Below, in pieces: positions 6,210 to 59,842 of a stretch of 64,000 nucleotides of DNA (the stretch's first letter is position 1; each line of letters begins with the position of its first letter). The stretch comes from Candidatus Omnitrophota bacterium. Its GTDB lineage: Bacteria > Omnitrophota > Omnitrophia > Omnitrophales > Aquincolibacteriaceae. The DNA lies in the NCBI GenBank assembly GCA_043821445.1, contig JBDRCT010000033.1, forward strand, positions 69,391 to 133,390. Direction: 5' to 3'. Below the pieces are notes generated by a model that made no database searches, was not told where the DNA came from, and saw only the letters and a list, made by a program, of their open reading frames with translations. Both the position numbers and the translations under genes were made by a program.

Positions 6210-7001
6210 CTAGGAACCGGCACCCGGTTCGTAGCCAACGAGTGTGGCGACGACTTCACCGAGAACGGGGACCTTGACTTTCATCATAAGCGGGACGCGA
6301 TGTTCGTCCATACTCATCCAACCGCGGATTTTTCCTCGCCGGACAAAAAAACCTTCGAACAAAATGATCGGCTCGACCTCGACCGCCTGAAAAACGCCCA
6401 TGGGGCCGATCTTCATTTCCTTGACGCCATGCGTAACGACTTCAAGATCCCAGTTCTTCTCGTCCGCGTTCACCGGGATCAGGGTCTTGGAATCGGTTTT
6501 TAGATCCTGGAGCCGGAGCCAATAGCAGCACGAGATCTGATCCTGAACATGCTTAGGGATGAACATCTCTTTGTGGCTGTTGTCCTTGCGGGAATAAAAG
6601 CGGCCGATGTGTTCATCCTGGTCGTATTCCATGGACTCGTCCGTCCAGTAGCGACCTTCTTTGATCTTCTTTTCATACCGAAGGGAGTGAAAGTGCTCGG
6701 CATCCATATAGGTATGATGTGTGTCCCGAACCTTGTAGATCCAATCAATTACCGCTCGCGAGCGAATGTTAATCTCTATGTGATAGGCGTCACGACCATT
6801 TACTTTAACGATCTCTTTGACCTCAGACTCCGCTTCCCCCACGGTGATCCCGAGATAACTGATCTCGAATTTTATTTTCTCCCCCAAAAAGATCTTCGCG
6901 GCGGGTTTTTCGGAATAGGGGAAGATCTTTTCCGTCTCCCCTGCAGAACCCGCCGGCATAAGAAAGACCAGCATTAAGAGAAGAAATGCGCATTTTTTCA
7001 T
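6210..7001 (-). CDS. Secreted DUF3108-like protein
   Basis: A signal peptide (MKKCAFLLLMLVFLMPAGSAG) is followed by a roughly 240-aa beta-rich domain. The family assignment is tentative. Confidence 0.45.
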   Translation of the reverse strand: MKKCAFLLLMLVFLMPAGSAGETEKIFPYSEKPAAKIFLGEKIKFEISYLGITVGEAESEVKEIVKVNGRDAYHIEINIRSRAVIDWIYKVRDTHHTYMDAEHFHSLRYEKKIKEGRYWTDESMEYDQDEHIGRFYSRKDNSHKEMFIPKHVQDQISCCYWLRLQDLKTDSKTLIPVNADEKNWDLEVVTHGVKEMKIGPMGVFQAVEVEPIILFEGFFVRRGKIRGWMSMDEHRVPLMMKVKVPVLGEVVATLVGYEPGAGS

Positions 7002-7091
7002 AAGGATCAGTTCCGGATAGTCCCAATACCCATCCATCGAAGCAAAGCTGAGATTGGGGCAATCCTTGTCGACCATTTTGGAAATAAAATC

Positions 7092-7352
7092 TTAGACAAG
7101 GATAGTCCTGTCCAGGCAAGCACCCATCCCGTCACAGAATATTTCTTTAACGAGTACGGCTTTCTTGCCCTGGCTTCTATTTTCGTTTTCTAGAAGATTA
7201 CCAGGGCTAGCCTCATGAACCTTTGCTCCTCCTGATGGAGAATGGGGCTTGTGTTCATCTTCCAGCACCAGAGCGCCTTCCGCGCATGCTTGGGTGCAAA
7301 GTCCGCATCCGTTGCATTTTTCCCGGTCGATCTCAATGATCTTACGTTTCAT
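7092..7352 (-). CDS. Small 4Fe-4S ferredoxin-like protein, interrupted in-frame by a repeat element
   Basis: [23 protein letters not shown] is a CxxCxxCxxxC cluster motif. The middle of the ORF (about 7158-7252) is coded by repeat copy R-A. The C-terminus has only CDGMGAC. Confidence 0.4.
7158..7252 (-). repeat. R-A: double-hairpin repeat element inside the ferredoxin-like ORF
   Basis: Minus strand: ACAAGCCCCATTCTCCATCAGGAGGAGCAAAGGTTCATGAGGCTAGCC + CCTGG-loop(GAAAACGAAAATAGAAG)-CCAGG + GCAAGAAAGCC. Confidence 0.6.
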
Positions 7353-7394
7353 GATAACCTCTTTGTCGCTAAAGGGGTCAGGCATCTTTTTTCT

Positions 7395-24099: not shown

Positions 24100-25461
24100 T
24101 CACCTGCTGTGATACTTCCCGTCGCTCCCCCTTTTGATCTTTCCGTCCAGCTCCATCCTCAGCAAAATGACTGGCAATTTTGCGGACTCGAGTCCGGTAA
24201 ACTCCATCATCTCGTCCGGCCCCAGAGGGCCCTCATCTTTAAGAAGTTCTAAAATAACCGGTTCATCTTCCATGTGAGTGTCCCCGATTCGCCACAAATC
24301 GTTGGACGAATTCTTCCTTTGGCGAAAAAGGTGACTTTCCTGACTTTTGTTTTCTTTTTCTTTATGGTAGTCAGGACTGCCCCGATCTCCGCCCAAACTT
24401 TTCATTTCTTTTCCCAATGGTAGTTTGAACGGCCCCAATCTCCGCTCCGCTGCGACTGAATCGGTATTGGAACCGCTTCGCTCTGAATGAAAAGAATGGG
24501 GACTGTCACCTGTCTTTGTCTTTTCTTCTGGAGTTGCCGTACTAGATTCCTCAATGGGAGTTTGAGATGCCGGCTCGAATTTATTTTCCCATTTCAACCG
24601 ATCCGCCAAAGCAAGCAGAATATCCTCGAAAGTCTCCACCAGGCACGCGCCTTCCTTAATGAGCTGATGGGCTCCGCGTGACGTTAGTTGGTCCACGGGC
24701 CCCGGAAGCGCAAAAACCTCCCGTCCTTGTTCCACCGCTTGATGCGCCGTAATGAGAGATCCGCTTCGAGAATGGGCTTCGACCACGAATGTGGCATACG
24801 AAAGCCCCGACAGGATCCTGTTTCGGCGCGGAAAATTCTCCGGAAGAGGCGGCATTCCCAAAGGATATTCACTTAAAATCGCGCCCCTCTCCAAAATTCT
24901 CTGAAAAAGATTTTCGTTCTCCTTGGGATAGATCACATCGAGTCCGCATCCCATTACCGCGATCGTGCGACCGTAAGAGATATGAAGTGCGCCGTCGTGC
25001 GCAACTTGGTCGATCCCGCGCGCCAACCCGGAGATGATCGTAAGCCCCCTTGCGGCCAACTCCTGGGCAAAGCGTTTTGCTTGCGTCCGTCCATAAATAC
25101 TCGGGTGCCGCGTTCCCACGATGGCGATGGCATTCCTGTCATTCTCGATCAAGGTTCCTTTTCTATAGAGAAGAAGCGGCGGATCCGCGACTTCTTTAAG
25201 CATGGCCGGATAATCTCCGTCGGAGTAGAGCAAAAAATCGATCCCTTTTTGAACGCAAAGTTCGATCTCTTTTTCCGCATTAAAGGGTGCTACGTTTTCC
25301 GGAGCCGAAAAATCCTTAAGCAGATCCTCGGACTCCATGCGTTTCACGACTTCCTGGGCGCTCTTCCCCTCCGAGAGAAGCGCCAAGACCCTGCGACGAC
25401 CTTCGATCCGCAACCGGTTCAACGCTAAAAACGCCAGGATCTCCTTCTCTTCAATGGACAT
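24100..25461 (-). CDS. dprA: DNA-processing protein DprA (Smf), with an extended low-complexity linker
   Basis: 453 aa. Rossmann core (AIVGTRHPSIYG...GLARGIDQVAHDGAL...VVEAHSRSGSLITA). Then a linker of about 110 aa containing an imperfect 33-nt tandem repeat. Then a C-terminal winged-helix-like tail. Confidence 0.85.
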   Translation of the reverse strand: MSIEEKEILAFLALNRLRIEGRRRVLALLSEGKSAQEVVKRMESEDLLKDFSAPENVAPFNAEKEIELCVQKGIDFLLYSDGDYPAMLKEVADPPLLLYRKGTLIENDRNAIAIVGTRHPSIYGRTQAKRFAQELAARGLTIISGLARGIDQVAHDGALHISYGRTIAVMGCGLDVIYPKENENLFQRILERGAILSEYPLGMPPLPENFPRRNRILSGLSYATFVVEAHSRSGSLITAHQAVEQGREVFALPGPVDQLTSRGAHQLIKEGACLVETFEDILLALADRLKWENKFEPASQTPIEESSTATPEEKTKTGDSPHSFHSERSGSNTDSVAAERRLGPFKLPLGKEMKSLGGDRGSPDYHKEKENKSQESHLFRQRKNSSNDLWRIGDTHMEDEPVILELLKDEGPLGPDEMMEFTGLESAKLPVILLRMELDGKIKRGSDGKYHSR

Positions 25462-25516
25462 GGGGAGGCCCTTTTATCCGCAGTGGGCCGAGACAACTTC
25501 GTTTTTTCATAAGAGA

Positions 25517-29135: not shown

Positions 29136-30146
29136 TCATTTCCCCCGTTTGTTGAGAGCGTTAAGAAGCGCCCGGCGCATCACGCCCGCCGGCGCCTTTC
29201 GTCCCGTCCAAAGTTCCAAAGCCCGAGCGCCCTGATAAAGCAGCATCCCGAGCCCGTTGAGGGTCCGATGCCCTTTCTTTTTCGCCATCTTTAAAAAAGG
29301 TGTTACGGCCGGATTATAAATAAGATCCATAAAAAACTTCGGGCCGTAGCTTGCTTTTTTCGAGGCTCGCCCCCGCAGAGTTACTTGAACCCTTCCCGCT
29401 TGAGGGATCCAACTTTCCGGAACCACCTTCGGGTCTTGAGACCTCAGCCCGATCGGCGTCGCGTTGATAACAACATCGGCTTTTTGAAGAGCCTCCTTGA
29501 CCTCCGATGTTCCAGCCGCCACGGCATGGTAACCCACCTGTTTGAAAAGTTTCCGCATCTTCCTTGCGATTTTCCGGGCTTTTTGCGGAAAACAATCCGC
29601 AATCAGGATCTCCCGGATACCTGCCCGCGAAAGACCATAAACCACCGCACGTGCCGCGCCACCGGCCCCGAGGATCACGGCCTTTTTTCCGGACGGGCGA
29701 AACCCTCCTTCCTTCATGATCGCCCTGAGAAAACCTTCCATGTCCGTATTCGTACCTATCCACTGTCTTCCTTGTTTGAAAACAGTATTTACCGCGCCGA
29801 TAGCACGCGCTTCCGGCCGGATGCTGTCGAGATATTTCATCACCGTCTCTTTGAAGGGCACCGTGACATTAAAACCTGAAAGAGAAAGCTTGGAGGATCG
29901 GCGCATGAGCTTTTTGAAATCGACGGGAGTCGATTCTAAAACGATATAGTGGGCGTCGATCCCGAGCCTGCAAAACGCAGCTTCGTGCATGGCCGGAGAA
30001 AGAGTATGCGAAAGGGGGTACCCGAAGATCCCGTAAAGCTTAAAGGCCTTGTCCTGGCATCTGTTTTTTTCTGACTGAAGGTTGCCAGGACTAGTCCAAT
30101 TAACCTTCAAATTTTTTGATTGGGAATTGGGCTTGTCTTTTTTCAC
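29136..30146 (-). CDS. aroE: Shikimate dehydrogenase
   Basis: The core starts at KLYGIFGYPLSHTLSPAMHEAAF and includes GAGGAARAVVYGL. The ATG overlaps the leuA stop (ATGA). The roughly 33-aa N-terminal extension is coded by repeat R-C, so the true start is uncertain (possibly the TTG at codon 13). Confidence 0.8.
   Translation of the reverse strand: MKKDKPNSQSKNLKVNWTSPGNLQSEKNRCQDKAFKLYGIFGYPLSHTLSPAMHEAAFCRLGIDAHYIVLESTPVDFKKLMRRSSKLSLSGFNVTVPFKETVMKYLDSIRPEARAIGAVNTVFKQGRQWIGTNTDMEGFLRAIMKEGGFRPSGKKAVILGAGGAARAVVYGLSRAGIREILIADCFPQKARKIARKMRKLFKQVGYHAVAAGTSEVKEALQKADVVINATPIGLRSQDPKVVPESWIPQAGRVQVTLRGRASKKASYGPKFFMDLIYNPAVTPFLKMAKKKGHRTLNGLGMLLYQGARALELWTGRKAPAGVMRRALLNALNKRGK
30045..30137 (-). 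repeat. R-C: double-hairpin repeat element forming the 5' end of aroE
   Basis: Minus strand: ACAAGCCCAATTCCCAATCAAAAAATTTGAAGGTTAATTGGACTAGTCC + TGGCA-loop-TGCCAGGAC + AAGGCC. It is in the same frame as R-A, with peptide similarity DKPNSQSKNLKVNWTSPGNL vs [20 protein letters not shown]. Confidence 0.6.
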
Positions 30147-31690
30147 ACCGGGGAGGGCTGGCTTGCAGCCCGTTGAGAGTTCGCCGAAACTTTGTTAAGC
30201 GCGAAAAGGTAGGCACGTACGCTGGCTTCAATAATGTCGGTGCTCGTACCGCGGCCGGTCACTTCCTTGCCGCGGATCTCAAGCTTGACCAGCACTTCGC
30301 CCAAAGCATCTTTGCCGCTTGTGACCGATTGCAGGCCGTAATGAATAAGTTTCGCCCTGGAATTCACGATCTTCTCAATGGCCTTGTAACAAGCATCCAC
30401 GGGACCATCTCCGTTCGAGACGGCTTGTTTGGCCTGGCCCTCATAAGAAAGCTTGATCTGGGCGTGAGGCTTCGCACCGGTTTCAGACACCACCTTCATG
30501 GACATCAGCTTCCAAGTCTCCGGGATCTTGGCGATCTCATTTTGTAAGATGGCCTCGAGGTCTTCGTCAAAAATATATTTCTTCTTGTCCGCGAGAGCCT
30601 TGAATTGAACGAAAGCCTGATCGAGTTCCTTGGTTGCCAAACGGAACCCAAGTTTTCTTACGCGCACCTCAAAGGCGTGCTTACCCGAGAGTTTCCCGAG
30701 CATCAGCTGGCTGCCGGAAAGCCCGATTTTTTTGGGATCCATGATCTCATAGGTCTGACGCTTCTTGAGCACCCCGTCTTGATGGATGCCGGAAGCGTGC
30801 CAGAAGGCGTTGCGCCCGACGATCGCTTTGTTAGGCTGAACGACCATGCCCGTCAAATTAGAGACCAACCGCGAGGCTTTGGTGATCTCAGAGAGTTTGA
30901 TGTCTGTGTAACAATTCATGAAATCCGCGCGCGTGTCGATCGTCATGGCGATCTCCTCGAGCGAAGCATTCCCCGCACGTTCGCCGATCCCATTCACCGT
31001 ACACTCTACCTGATTTGCACCCGCCAGGACGGCAGCCAGGGAATTGGCCGTCGCGAGGCCAAGGTCATTATGACAATGAACCGAAAGCACGACTTTCTTG
31101 CCCAATTCGGGGTTTTTTTTGATCAGGAAACGGATCAATTCCGTGAACTCTTGTGGGACCGTATAACCCACGGTATCCGGAATATTGATCGAAGTGGCCC
31201 CCGCATGGATCGCGGCCCGGACGGTCCCTGCCAAAAAGTCCCGTTCGGTACGCGATGCATCTTCAGGCGAGAATTCGATCTGTTTGAAATCCTTGGCCGC
31301 GGACCTGATGTTCTGCTCGATCATCGCCAAGATCTCTTTTTTATTCTTCCTGAGTTTGAATTCACGATGGATCTGTGAGGTTGCGAGAAAAAGATGCAGG
31401 CGTTTCCTCGCGGCTTTTTCAAGAGCCCGTCGGCATGCATCGATATCCCTCGGCATCATACGCGAAAGACCGCAGATCACGGGCTTACGCACATGTTCCG
31501 CGATCATGGAGACGGCCTTCATCTCCCCAAGCGAAGACGCCGGGAACCCTGCTTCGATTACATCGATATTCAACCGCTCAAGCTGGCGCGCGATCGTCAG
31601 CTTCTCGTCGGGAGTAAGCGACGCCCCGGGCGATTGCTCGCCGTCTCTCAACGTGGTGTCGAATATGTGAATCTTCCGTTTTCCCGCCAT
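30143..31690 (-). CDS. leuA: 2-isopropylmalate synthase
   Basis: 515 aa. IFDTTLRDGEQSPGASL...HCHNDLGLATANSLAA, and a C-terminal regulatory domain. Confidence 0.9.
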   Translation of the reverse strand: MAGKRKIHIFDTTLRDGEQSPGASLTPDEKLTIARQLERLNIDVIEAGFPASSLGEMKAVSMIAEHVRKPVICGLSRMMPRDIDACRRALEKAARKRLHLFLATSQIHREFKLRKNKKEILAMIEQNIRSAAKDFKQIEFSPEDASRTERDFLAGTVRAAIHAGATSINIPDTVGYTVPQEFTELIRFLIKKNPELGKKVVLSVHCHNDLGLATANSLAAVLAGANQVECTVNGIGERAGNASLEEIAMTIDTRADFMNCYTDIKLSEITKASRLVSNLTGMVVQPNKAIVGRNAFWHASGIHQDGVLKKRQTYEIMDPKKIGLSGSQLMLGKLSGKHAFEVRVRKLGFRLATKELDQAFVQFKALADKKKYIFDEDLEAILQNEIAKIPETWKLMSMKVVSETGAKPHAQIKLSYEGQAKQAVSNGDGPVDACYKAIEKIVNSRAKLIHYGLQSVTSGKDALGEVLVKLEIRGKEVTGRGTSTDIIEASVRAYLFALNKVSANSQRAASQPSPV

Positions 31691-33300: not shown

Positions 33301-33334
33301 AAGAACTCCTTTTGATTATCTGAGGGTTTAGCGT

Positions 33335-33417
33335 CTAGTACCGTTCTCTATTTATTTTTACGGGTTAACGGTACTAGCACTACAAACCCGTAAAAATTAA
33401 CAGTAATGCAGTGCTAG
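33335..33417. repeat. X1: intergenic double-hairpin element between ilvB and ilvN
   Basis: H1 is CTAGTACCGTT-loop(ctctatttatttttacgggtt)-AACGGTACTAG. H2 is CTAGCACT-loop(acaaacccgtaaaaattaacagtaatgc)-AGTGCTAG. Loop 1 (TTTTTACGGGTT) is complementary to loop 2 (AACCCGTAAAAA). Confidence 0.7.
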
Positions 33418-45895: not shown

Positions 45896-45989
45896 TCCAT
45901 AGGGAGGGTATTTTAACACAAAGTGGGCCTATTCATTTTTCAAGAAAAGCGGCTTTCCCGGACGGGAACTACTTAAAAATAGAGGCGTC

Positions 45990-46042
45990 CTGGATTCAAA
46001 TATAAAAATAATTGAAATCCAGGACAGCACTGATCTTCAATG
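45990..46042 (-). terminator. Putative aspC terminator
   Basis: A 10-bp stem (gtcctggatt / aatccaggac) with a 19-nt AT-rich loop, followed on the minus strand by gccucuAUUUUUaag. The stem type is shared with repeat R-C. Confidence 0.4.
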
Positions 46043-50815: not shown

Positions 50816-50890
50816 CGTCTAGTCCCAATTCTTATCAATTTCAGAGAATCTGAAATTGGGGCAACCCTTGTCAACCATTTAAGAAAAGAA

Positions 50891-51658
50891 TCACAGGCAA
50901 GGGTAGAGAGCCTCGTCGCCTGTTAAATTCATAAGTCCACTTTCCGTAAAAACAACCGTATCTTCGTAATGACTGGCGTTCTTACGATCTTTTGTGACTA
51001 CCGTCCAACCGTCCTCAAGCGTCTCCACTGCATAATGACCTTCCGTCACCATCGGCTCGATCGCAATCACCAATCCCGGTTCGATCTTGGCCCCCCGCCC
51101 GGCTTTCCCGTAATTCGGAACCTGCGGATCCTCGTGAAGCTGCCGTCCGATCCCATGTCCGGCGTAATCACGGACCAGTTGAAATCCTCGCTCTTCAACG
51201 TATCGCTGGATCGTCTCTGAAATATCCCCGATCCGCCAACCCGATTGATACGCCGCCATCGCTGCGTCAAAGGAGCCCTTCGCGGCACGGATCAACGTCT
51301 GTTTTCTCGGATCGGCCACGCCCACCTGCCAGGTCCTTGCCGCATCCGCATAAAACCCGTTCCATTTAACTCCAATATCAAAACTAACAATATCGCCATC
51401 TTTCAAACGACGCGCACCTGGGATTCCGTGCACCACGGCCTCATTGATGGAAATACAAGCTGCCTTCGGGAACCCGCGATAACCCTTGAACGCCGGTTCC
51501 CCGCCATTTTCAACGATCACCTTTTCTGCCGCGCAATCCAAGGCTTCCGTTGTCACGCCTTCAACGATCATGGGTTTCACGACCGAGAATATTTTTTTCA
51601 GGATCTTCCCGGCTTCCAAAATCAGTTGAATTTCACGTTTTGATTTCAACTCGATCAT
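50891..51658 (-). CDS. map: Methionine aminopeptidase type I
   Basis: 255 aa. HGIPG...DIGV...GHGIGR metal-ligand motifs. Confidence 0.9.
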   Translation of the reverse strand: MIELKSKREIQLILEAGKILKKIFSVVKPMIVEGVTTEALDCAAEKVIVENGGEPAFKGYRGFPKAACISINEAVVHGIPGARRLKDGDIVSFDIGVKWNGFYADAARTWQVGVADPRKQTLIRAAKGSFDAAMAAYQSGWRIGDISETIQRYVEERGFQLVRDYAGHGIGRQLHEDPQVPNYGKAGRGAKIEPGLVIAIEPMVTEGHYAVETLEDGWTVVTKDRKNASHYEDTVVFTESGLMNLTGDEALYPCL

Positions 51659-53664: not shown

Positions 53665-53679
53665 CAGAACTCCGTTCTT

Positions 53680-53753
53680 GCACTGTGTTCTATTTAATTT
53701 TAAAGGTTCACAGTGCTAGTACCGTGCACCCTTAAAAATTAATCTGACACGGT
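53680..53753. repeat. X2: intergenic double-hairpin element between rplO and secY
   Basis: H1 is GCACTGTG-loop(ttctatttaattttaaaggtt)-CACAGTGC. H2 is ACCGTG-loop(cacccttaaaaattaatctga)-CACGGT. The loops are homologous to those of X1 and X3. It also shares the 10-mer CTAGTACCGT with X1. Confidence 0.7.
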
Positions 53754-53762
53754 GCTTGTTAT

Positions 53763-59318: not shown

Positions 59319-59393
59319 ATACTGTTCCCAATTAAATTTTAAGGGTTAACAGTATTATGCCGCATACCCTTAAATTTAAATGTGATGCGGCAT
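59319..59393. repeat. X3: intergenic double-hairpin element between rplV and rpsC
   Basis: H1 is ATACTGTT-loop(cccaattaaattttaagggtt)-AACAGTAT. H2 is ATGCCGCAT-loop(acccttaaatttaaatgtg)-ATGCGGCAT. H2 overlaps the rplV stop by 1 nt. Confidence 0.7.
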
Positions 59394-59842
59394 TAAGCCG
59401 CCGCGGCGGTTTTTTTCTTGTTCTTCGCTTTCGCGTCTTCCGGCGATCTTCCGCCCCAAAACTTGATTCCTTCGCGGACTTCCACGGTCAGGTGGGTGGT
59501 CCGTTTGAGAATTTTATCCGCACGCCCCATAGAACGGGTCAGAAACCGTTTGAATACCGGCCCCCCATCCGCACGCACGTTCGATACATAAAGACGGTTT
59601 TCATTCAATCCCAGATTCTTGGCGTTCGAGATGGCGCTTTTCAAAGTCTTGACCGCCATCTTAGCGCCCTTCTTTTTAAGAAGCATCAGAATCCCGACCG
59701 CTTCCTGGGCCGGTTGCCTCCGGATTGTATCGATCACAAGACGCATCTTTCGCGGCGCGATCCTTAAGTGCTTCGTAAGCGCTCTGACGACGCGCGGCGA
59801 CGGCGCTACATCTACTTTTGATTTTTTTTCGTCCTTGGCCAT
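59393..59842 (-). CDS. rplV: 50S ribosomal protein L22
   Basis: 149 aa. Confidence 0.9.
   Translation of the reverse strand: MAKDEKKSKVDVAPSPRVVRALTKHLRIAPRKMRLVIDTIRRQPAQEAVGILMLLKKKGAKMAVKTLKSAISNAKNLGLNENRLYVSNVRADGGPVFKRFLTRSMGRADKILKRTTHLTVEVREGIKFWGGRSPEDAKAKNKKKTAAAA

Follow-up and report, generated by a model that had tools for sequence, protein, structure and literature searches.

A probable mobile palindromic repeat inserted in frame near the start of aroE in a Candidatus Omnitrophota bacterium

Introduction

Why does the shikimate dehydrogenase gene aroE of a Candidatus Omnitrophota bacterium open with repetitive DNA, and where does its translation begin? The question is raised by a stretch of 64,000 nucleotides (nt) of contig JBDRCT010000033.1 (GenBank assembly GCA_043821445.1), referred to here as the window, in which aroE follows leuA on the minus strand and has a repeat close to its 5' end. 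A preliminary description, made from the sequence alone, held that this repeat forms the entire extension ahead of the normal AroE start and left two readings: either the repeat has been domesticated as an N-terminal extension, or translation starts internally at a TTG codon and the repeat is a structured spacer between leuA and aroE.

The segment is better described as a mobile palindromic repeat that inserted in frame and is tolerated there. With a probability of roughly 85%, it belongs to a short, hairpin-forming and non-autonomous repeat which spreads in Omnitrophota genomes and survives inside protein-coding genes. An 84-nt element would have inserted after codon 5 of aroE (VKKDK/AFKLYG), leaving intact the ancestral GTG, which is coupled to the leuA stop via a GTGA overlap. 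Translation would still proceed from this GTG and give an AroE with a disordered N-terminal insert of 28 residues, tolerated by the enzyme.

Insertion at the leuA-aroE junction

The Omnitrophota homologues of AroE fall into three N-terminal classes, empty, filled and double. Empty proteins read (M/V)KKDKAFKLYGIFG..., i.e. (M/V)KKDKAFKLYG, and filled ones, which have the same start, read MKKDKPNS...SPGNLQSEKNRCQDKAFKLYG..., i.e. MKKDKPNS...CQDKAFKLYG; in the double class a second element is nested within the first. The N-terminus of the window AroE is VKKDK-(28 aa)-AFKLYG. The preliminary description had proposed a comparison with the aroE 5' ends of related genomes; in this comparison filled and empty alleles differ by exactly 84 nt (28 codons). 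The junction was aligned for four syntenic loci, the window and L059 with filled and L057 and L058 with empty alleles; the gene order ilvN-ilvC-leuA-aroE-pilD-aroC-aroK-aroB is common to the fetched empty and filled loci. Upstream of the insert, the GTGTGA overlap included, all four loci are identical. The insert is flanked by GACAAG on both sides, and the empty sites have a single GACAGG or GAAAAG. An indel of exactly this size argues for an insertion and against a spacer, and from the alignment the segment would have been placed after ancestral codon 5. The repeat does encode codons 4-33 of the longest aroE open reading frame (ORF), but it appears as a 28-codon insertion behind five ancestral codons and not as the whole extension.

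The coding-strand sequence of the junction is ...CCCCGGT GTG A AAAAAGACAAGCCC.... The aroE start had been given as an ATG overlapping the leuA stop; the overlap is there, and the codon is a GTG (GTGA, 30143-30146). An (A/G)TG overlapping the leuA stop is found in all filled and empty alleles, and in the empty ones it is the sole possible start. The overlap is unchanged in empty alleles, which argues that the ancestral aroE began at this GTG. A structured intercistronic spacer is contradicted by the same observation, since neither filled nor empty alleles leave a gap between the two genes, and by the lack of conservation of the TTG. Between codon 13 and the conserved LYGIFGYPLSHTLSP not one in-frame ATG, GTG or TTG occurs, and because of this at least 21 element-encoded residues, most likely all 28, would be translated.

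Close AroE orthologues with 90%, 86% and 85% identity are devoid of the segment, and alleles with and without it are interleaved over the AroE tree, even within sister pairs; to produce such a tree, either seamless loss or gain at one and the same nucleotide would have had to occur many times. Some AroE orthologues have a copy at the gene's 3' end, read in frame 3, where the final residues are replaced by AQFSIKKFKG and the stop is supplied by the element.

Shikimate dehydrogenases in the PDB start at about residue 31-38 of the window AroE ORF. The AlphaFold model of the latter has a mean pLDDT (predicted local distance difference test) of 83 with a confident core; residues 1-32, with pLDDT values of about 30 and without secondary structure, are predicted to be disordered, residue 36 being the start of the first strand. 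Neither promoters nor terminators were detected in a scan of 29800-30400. Elsewhere in the gene, at 29310-29417 (codons ~250-266), a 45-nt (15-codon) segment RVQVTLRGRASKKASYG is variably present among AroE orthologues and has low AlphaFold confidence; as no copies occur outside aroE orthologues in the DNA searched, it was rejected as another repeat.

Features of the repeat

The repeat at the junction was confirmed by nhmmer with E ~1e-26, a value shared by two further copies in the window, which are ~70% identical; the profile was built from these three, and all three sit within genes (Table 1). Two details reported earlier for the aroE copy were borne out: it shares its reading frame and 11 of 20 residues with the copy in the small 4Fe-4S (Fer4) ORF (20 letters against DKPNSQSKNLKVNWTSPGNL, counted by hand on the translations), and it contains the hairpin GTCCTGGC/GCCAGGAC. 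A supposed recurrence of this stem in the aspC terminator hairpin was not supported, as only the 7-mer GTCCTGG is shared, which has 12 occurrences in the window where 5.7 would be expected, and the family profile has no match there. The aspC-side hairpin, previously placed at 46004-46042, lies about 17 nt away at 45987-46025, downstream of a plus-strand ORF; it has a 14-bp stem (GTCCTGGATT.../...AATCCAGGAC) and is not detectably related to the repeat family.

Table 1. Positions of the repeats, their parts and the leuA-aroE junction in the window
Feature	Position	Strand	Remarks
Family-1 repeat copy in aroE, including both GACAAG repeats	30048..30137	-	84 nt correspond to the insertion: PNSQSKNLKVNWTSPGNLQSEKNRCQDK plus one DK, 28 codons
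Left direct repeat GACAAG	30132..30137	-	Codons 4-5, Asp-Lys; presumed target hexamer; from junction alignment
Right direct repeat GACAAG	30048..30053	-	Also foot of the 3' arm of hairpin 2; from junction alignment
Hairpin 1	30095..30131	-	Arms 30125-30131 and 30095-30101; conserved 23-nt loop
Hairpin 2	30048..30094	-	Arms 30084-30094 and 30048-30058
aroE (shikimate dehydrogenase), longest ORF	29136..30146	-	336 codons counted from GTG
leuA (2-isopropylmalate synthase)	30143..31690	-	515 aa; length equal to empty-site relatives
GTG, ancestral and most likely start codon of aroE	30144..30146	-	Overlaps leuA TGA 30143-30145
In-frame TTG, aroE codon 13, inside the repeat	30108..30110	-	Start in NCBI annotation; varies among filled orthologues
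Family-1 copy in small 4Fe-4S ORF (7092-7385)	7164..7253	-	Frame 1, between Cys clusters; site also filled in L064
Family-1 copy in kdtA/waaA (16784-18238)	17250..17339	-	Frame 2 (TSPILHQKKERLIRLAPTTVHENKIEVGAR); 28-aa insertion relative to 456-aa orthologues
Second family, 84 nt, two hairpins (TAG/TCCCAAT...ATTGGGGCAATCC...GGATAG)	7015-7105, 50817-50906	+	Partial copy 24325-24410 in minus-strand ORF 24100-25473

The ends of the element, GACAAGCCCAATT... and ...GCCAGGACAAG, are direct and not inverted repeats. In a structural alignment of 32 copies (A3), helix 1 is formed by columns 7-13 with 37-43, where 16 copies have A-U and 13 have C-G at pair 10-40, and helix 2 by columns 44-54 with 81-91, with double (compensatory) changes in nine of the 11 pairs. 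Over both helices 86% of the cells are paired and 10 pairs show double changes, while slid controls are 18-45% paired; none of 500 shuffles matched the observed covariation score. The same two helices are recovered independently by RNAalifold, and the z-scores for folding of single sequences range from -2.4 to -4.7. Exceptions to pairing are about equally often G.U (14) and A.C (13); the constraint is therefore not visibly specific to the sense RNA, and a DNA-level palindrome is at least as likely as a structure of the sense RNA. Rfam delivered no match at the gathering score over the whole window and only noise with E > 2 over 29950-30250. A central third helix (columns 31-36 with 55-60, AAGGTT/AACCTT) was rejected, its variants being uncompensated in A3.

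On the sense strand of the element, frame 1 (DKPNSPSKNLKVNWTSPGNLQSEENRCQDK) and frame 2 are open and frame 3 stops at TAA; on the opposite strand all three frames, read from the consensus, are closed. The reading frame is set by the hexamer, GAC-AAG giving frame 1, xxG-ACA-AGx frame 2 (kdtA TCG ACA AGC) and xGA-CAA-Gxx frame 3. A copy landing on an in-frame GAC-AAG (Asp-Lys) reads DKPNS...CQDK. Apart from one A.A mismatch, an internal arm (columns 44-49, CTAGTC) matches the complement of both hexamers. The flanking hexamers are almost always GACAAG. A variant 4-mer is seen in eight copies, four of which show the same variant on both sides (CAGG, TAAG, CATG, CCTG), with the internal arm keeping or improving its pairing; a plain target-site duplication would not predict that the arm changes. 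Two family-1 copies (L056 959-1071 and L045 1110-1228) carry between the two hairpins an extra 21-nt perfect mini-palindrome CCTGCCTGCCGGACAGGCAGG, the length of which is also a multiple of three.

Distribution and host genes

A scan of one genome per species with a degenerate 19-mer from the conserved end of the element gave 56 matches, with ~35 expected by chance. A profile search found full-length elements only in Omnitrophota or in unnamed metagenome-assembled genomes, in 10 species-level genomes. More copies were contributed by a metagenome scan, and after removal of duplicates the set comprised 45 non-redundant copies from at least 10 species-level Omnitrophota genomes. A pattern scan of viral contigs produced chance matches only and no element. 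At the protein level, the 30-aa segment had just two weak and uninformative matches in a library of 1.84 billion proteins, and a word-indexed protein search with the 60-aa tandem consensus peptide found nothing.

All but three of the 45 copies lie in long ORFs, every one of these in sense orientation; only one strand is stop-free (in two frames), and therefore only sense-oriented copies persist within genes. Host genes confirmed by NCBIfam encode FtsK (with the copy in the linker), a UbiD-family decarboxylase, RbfA, GltX, QueD, LeuS and LspA. The copies in RbfA occupy the C-terminal tail and are single, tandem or nested; that in LspA is likewise in the C-terminal tail and that in LeuS in the N-terminal region. 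In queD the element lies within the conserved loop GGH/KCSHLHGH in seven loci (L007, L024, L046, L072, L104, L003 and L102); this site looks like the catalytic or active-site loop, and the gene is intact. Further hosts, recognised by eye only, are an AddB-like nuclease, a histidine kinase, a Ski2-like helicase and a zinc-ribbon protein. The host genes are functionally unrelated, and the codons flanking the copies are under purifying selection.

The kdtA copy, whose place within a gene had gone unmentioned in the preliminary description, repeats the pattern of aroE in another frame. Its product has 484 aa, the modal length of the orthologues being 456 aa (+28), and the DNA reads TCGACTAAGAGAAAAG in empty and TCGACAAG (84 nt) AGGAAAAG in filled alleles, an 84-nt difference. 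A stretch of 9 residues in the solved structure of Aquifex WaaA (PDB 2xci) corresponds to 41 residues in the window protein. The AlphaFold model of KdtA is poor overall (mean pLDDT 59), with residues 302-333 of low confidence. Some kdtA orthologues keep only remnants of the insert (P0123, P0166), and others have different elements of 27-28 codons at two further sites, one of 81 nt with CAG repeats and one of 84 nt that belongs to the second family of the window. These sister elements likewise fold as two hairpins. Among the orthologues, L147 (4001-5536) and L149 (4001-5539) contribute up to two or three distinct elements of 27-28 codons, at three sites and in different lineages, and kdtA of P0178 has a QPSASDQLKGLPMTVP... 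element in two tandem copies.

The Fer4 ORF takes its final codons and its stop from the second-family copy at 7015-7105, which in addition gives an artificially long N-terminus to the DUF3108 ORF (6210-7076), whose true start is probably MKKCAFLLL. Nesting of family 2 in family 1 after a TAG yields 171-nt composites and the AroE N-termini of the double class. A third family of hairpin repeats has CTAG at its boundaries and was observed at 33334-33417, 53676-53760 and 59331-59400; it is intergenic in the window and forms one long nested hairpin, not two.

Selection and divergence

Among filled aroE orthologues the element shows 41/23/30 differences at the three codon positions, and its codon changes are synonymous in 18 cases and non-synonymous in 61; the corresponding values for the adjoining aroE core are 141/122/488, 388 and 222. 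The element thus changes without protein-type constraint, which argues against domestication. Its nucleotides nevertheless diverge slowly, orthologous copies being 2.5-5 times slower than the flanking third codon positions: 7% against 34% in queD, 16% against 40% in rbfA, and 0 of 90 differences against 21% in one ftsK pair. All seven queD copies have the site-specific stem variant GTGCTGG/CCAGCAC, which indicates vertical descent. In-place selection at the nucleotide level, gene conversion and repeated re-insertion are possible sources of the slow divergence. The element with its hairpins is conserved as nucleotide sequence and not as peptide, which points to a constraint on the DNA or RNA of the element and not to a function of the extension.

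Alternative explanations

An alternative start within the repeat would change how much of it is translated. The TTG at codon 13 is present as described earlier; initiation there would leave the 36 nt that follow the leuA stop untranslated and add no more than 21 residues from the repeat. The NCBI record MFH1800351.1 (324 aa) begins at this TTG, and a Shine-Dalgarno-like purine run is missing upstream of both candidate starts, but other filled orthologues have Ser, Pro or other Leu codons at its position (AGC, CCA, CTx), the GTG or ATG at the leuA stop is kept in every allele, filled or empty, and the upstream start is called by other annotation pipelines (P0002, P0005, P0006). We consider the TTG an unlikely start, and the aroE start of the public record is probably 12 codons too short. 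That the repeat peptide is a domesticated, functional extension of AroE, for instance regulatory or targeting, is far less credible. Of the earlier proposal, the translated extension is supported and its domestication is not: although the insertion is retained in several species with its reading frame intact, its presence varies down to orthologues 90%, 86% and 85% identical, its changes are mostly non-synonymous and spread across all codon positions, kdtA uses a different frame of this DNA, which in other genomes gives a stop codon at the aroE 3' end, and the segment is predicted to be disordered.

A host-selected cis-acting motif, either a protein-binding site on the DNA or an mRNA structure modulating translation or stability, would make the element subject to purifying selection and not purely selfish. 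Such a motif agrees with the low divergence of the queD, rbfA and ftsK copies, with stems kept paired through compensatory changes between nearly invariant loop flanks, and with the folding z-scores. It fits less well with the balance of G.U and A.C departures, which gives no sign of selection specific to the sense RNA, with presence and absence at the same aroE site among close relatives, which speaks against a needed function there, and with the functionally unrelated host genes; low divergence may also come from re-insertion of conserved master copies or from gene conversion. We therefore hold a cis-acting motif to be quite improbable. An assembly or binning artefact that mis-joined a repeat into the leuA-aroE junction comes to mind with a metagenome-assembled genome as the source, but the same insertion is found at the same nucleotide position in independent NCBI, ENA, JGI and Logan assemblies with diverged flanking genes, and we give it practically no credence. 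Inteins, introns and ribosomal bypass were rejected, as the segment has only 28 codons, is stop-free in the frame used and is present only in the open-frame orientation.

Several observations weigh against a mobile insertion translated from the GTG. The public annotation starts at the TTG, and both initiation at the GTG and translation of the insert are deduced from sequence comparison. Recombination between lineages could be another source of the interleaved AroE tree. Divergence slower than at synonymous sites is unexpected for decaying junk and could reflect a function of the element. [quoted passage not shown] The 1.1 Mb searched revealed neither a transposase nor an autonomous parent, by tests that are weak: in this DNA no pairs of left and right ends lie more than 171 nt apart, the longest being the 171-nt nested copies, next to copies of 107-108 nt that bear the mini-palindrome, and tblastn of the window and the loci (partial genomes) with an IS608 TnpA sequence gave no match.

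Mobilisation

Mobility of the element is indicated by many unrelated sites, nested and tandem copies, lineage-specific presence, and the interleaving of filled and empty alleles in the AroE tree. The leading guess for its mechanism is a single-strand HUH enzyme of the IS200/IS605 or RAYT type, because the hexamer is identical at the left flank and the right end, terminal inverted repeats are missing, empty sites are seamless, and the internal arm covaries with both hexamers. A guide encoded by the element itself, as in IS200/IS605 transposons, would predict an internal arm that changes along with the hexamer. Slippage between hexamer repeats across a hairpin is a known path to precise deletion.

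The GC skew is negative on the plus strand across the window (1-64000), where the minus strand carries nearly all of the long ORFs seen; the window in its entirety would therefore seem to belong to a single replichore, its genes running in the direction of replication. The minus strand, being the G-rich one, is presumably the leading strand, so that the open orientation corresponds to the lagging-strand template, which is compatible with an HUH-type mechanism. A stop-codon filter accounts for the orientation of the copies equally well.

A more far-reaching proposal, which we regard as doubtful, is that the elements of 81-84 nt constitute a previously undescribed superfamily of mobile DNA adapted to coding sequences, with a length that is a multiple of three, two stop-free frames, a central guide arm pairing with the target hexamer and the right end, seamless and site-specific single-strand insertion and excision by an HUH-type or other enzyme, and copies kept by selection at the nucleotide level. 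If true, this would be a retargetable, scarless insertion system living in essential genes.

Relation to known elements

Full-text literature searches turned up no account of such repeats from Omnitrophota. In their behaviour they come closest to the Rickettsia palindromic elements (RPE), hairpin-forming repeats that occupy unrelated genes in frame (Ogata et al. 2000, summarised in PMC10969869 and PMC3184786) and measure ~105-146 nt according to the size table of PMC3184786. Both are short and dispersed, form hairpins within unrelated housekeeping genes, add a translated peptide at permissive positions, and have neither a transposase of their own nor a known mechanism. The likeness is one of behaviour in a different phylum, and no sequence homology to RPE-1 to RPE-10 is claimed. 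The Omnitrophota element is shorter, with a fixed length of 84 nt, two hairpins and GACAAG direct repeats, and it has several sister families of 81-84 nt, nesting across families and a divergence slower than that of synonymous sites.

The Coxiella elements QMITE1/2 extend ORFs and have terminal inverted repeats and variable direct repeats (PMC5896051). Together with intragenic ERIC and Correia elements they resemble the present repeat as short non-autonomous repeats which extend or fuse ORFs and give stops or C-terminal residues. They differ in their terminal inverted repeats, in variable target-site duplications and in being mostly intergenic or at gene ends, whereas the Omnitrophota element is without terminal inverted repeats, is flanked by an almost constant hexamer and is mainly intragenic.

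With IS200/IS605 elements and repetitive extragenic palindromic (REP) sequences it has in common subterminal hairpins, the absence of terminal inverted repeats, a flanking sequence resembling the right end of the element, seamless excision, and an internal sequence complementary to the cleavage or target site. Palindrome-associated elements derived from IS200/IS605, and REP and REPIN sequences, are reportedly mobilised by Y1 HUH transposases (work of Barabas 2008, Ton-Hoang 2012 and Bertels & Rainey 2011). The spacing from hairpin to end is unlike that of IS608, and no Y1 transposase or RAYT was identified in the partial genomes searched; REPs are extragenic, whereas nearly all Omnitrophota copies lie in ORFs and are stop-free. 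The behaviour of the element is thus known from Rickettsia, and what differs is the phylum and the anatomy, i.e. the fixed 84 nt, the two hairpins, the hexamer repeats and the nested sister families.

Significance

For annotation, ORF callers are misled by such repeats elsewhere too, as the repeats lengthen N-termini or provide stops. With a fixed size of 84 nt, repeated hexamers, filled and empty alleles that differ seamlessly, three-way covariation and slow divergence, mobilisation becomes a concrete, testable problem, and the wider phenomenon, with its slow divergence, three-way covariation and seamless polymorphism, holds more interest than aroE on its own. The elements show where essential enzymes tolerate an insert, the QueD active-site loop being one such place. 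Omnitrophota are very small, probably host-dependent cells. Selfish DNA within protein-coding genes, best known from Rickettsia, occurs in Omnitrophota too, with several families and with nesting.

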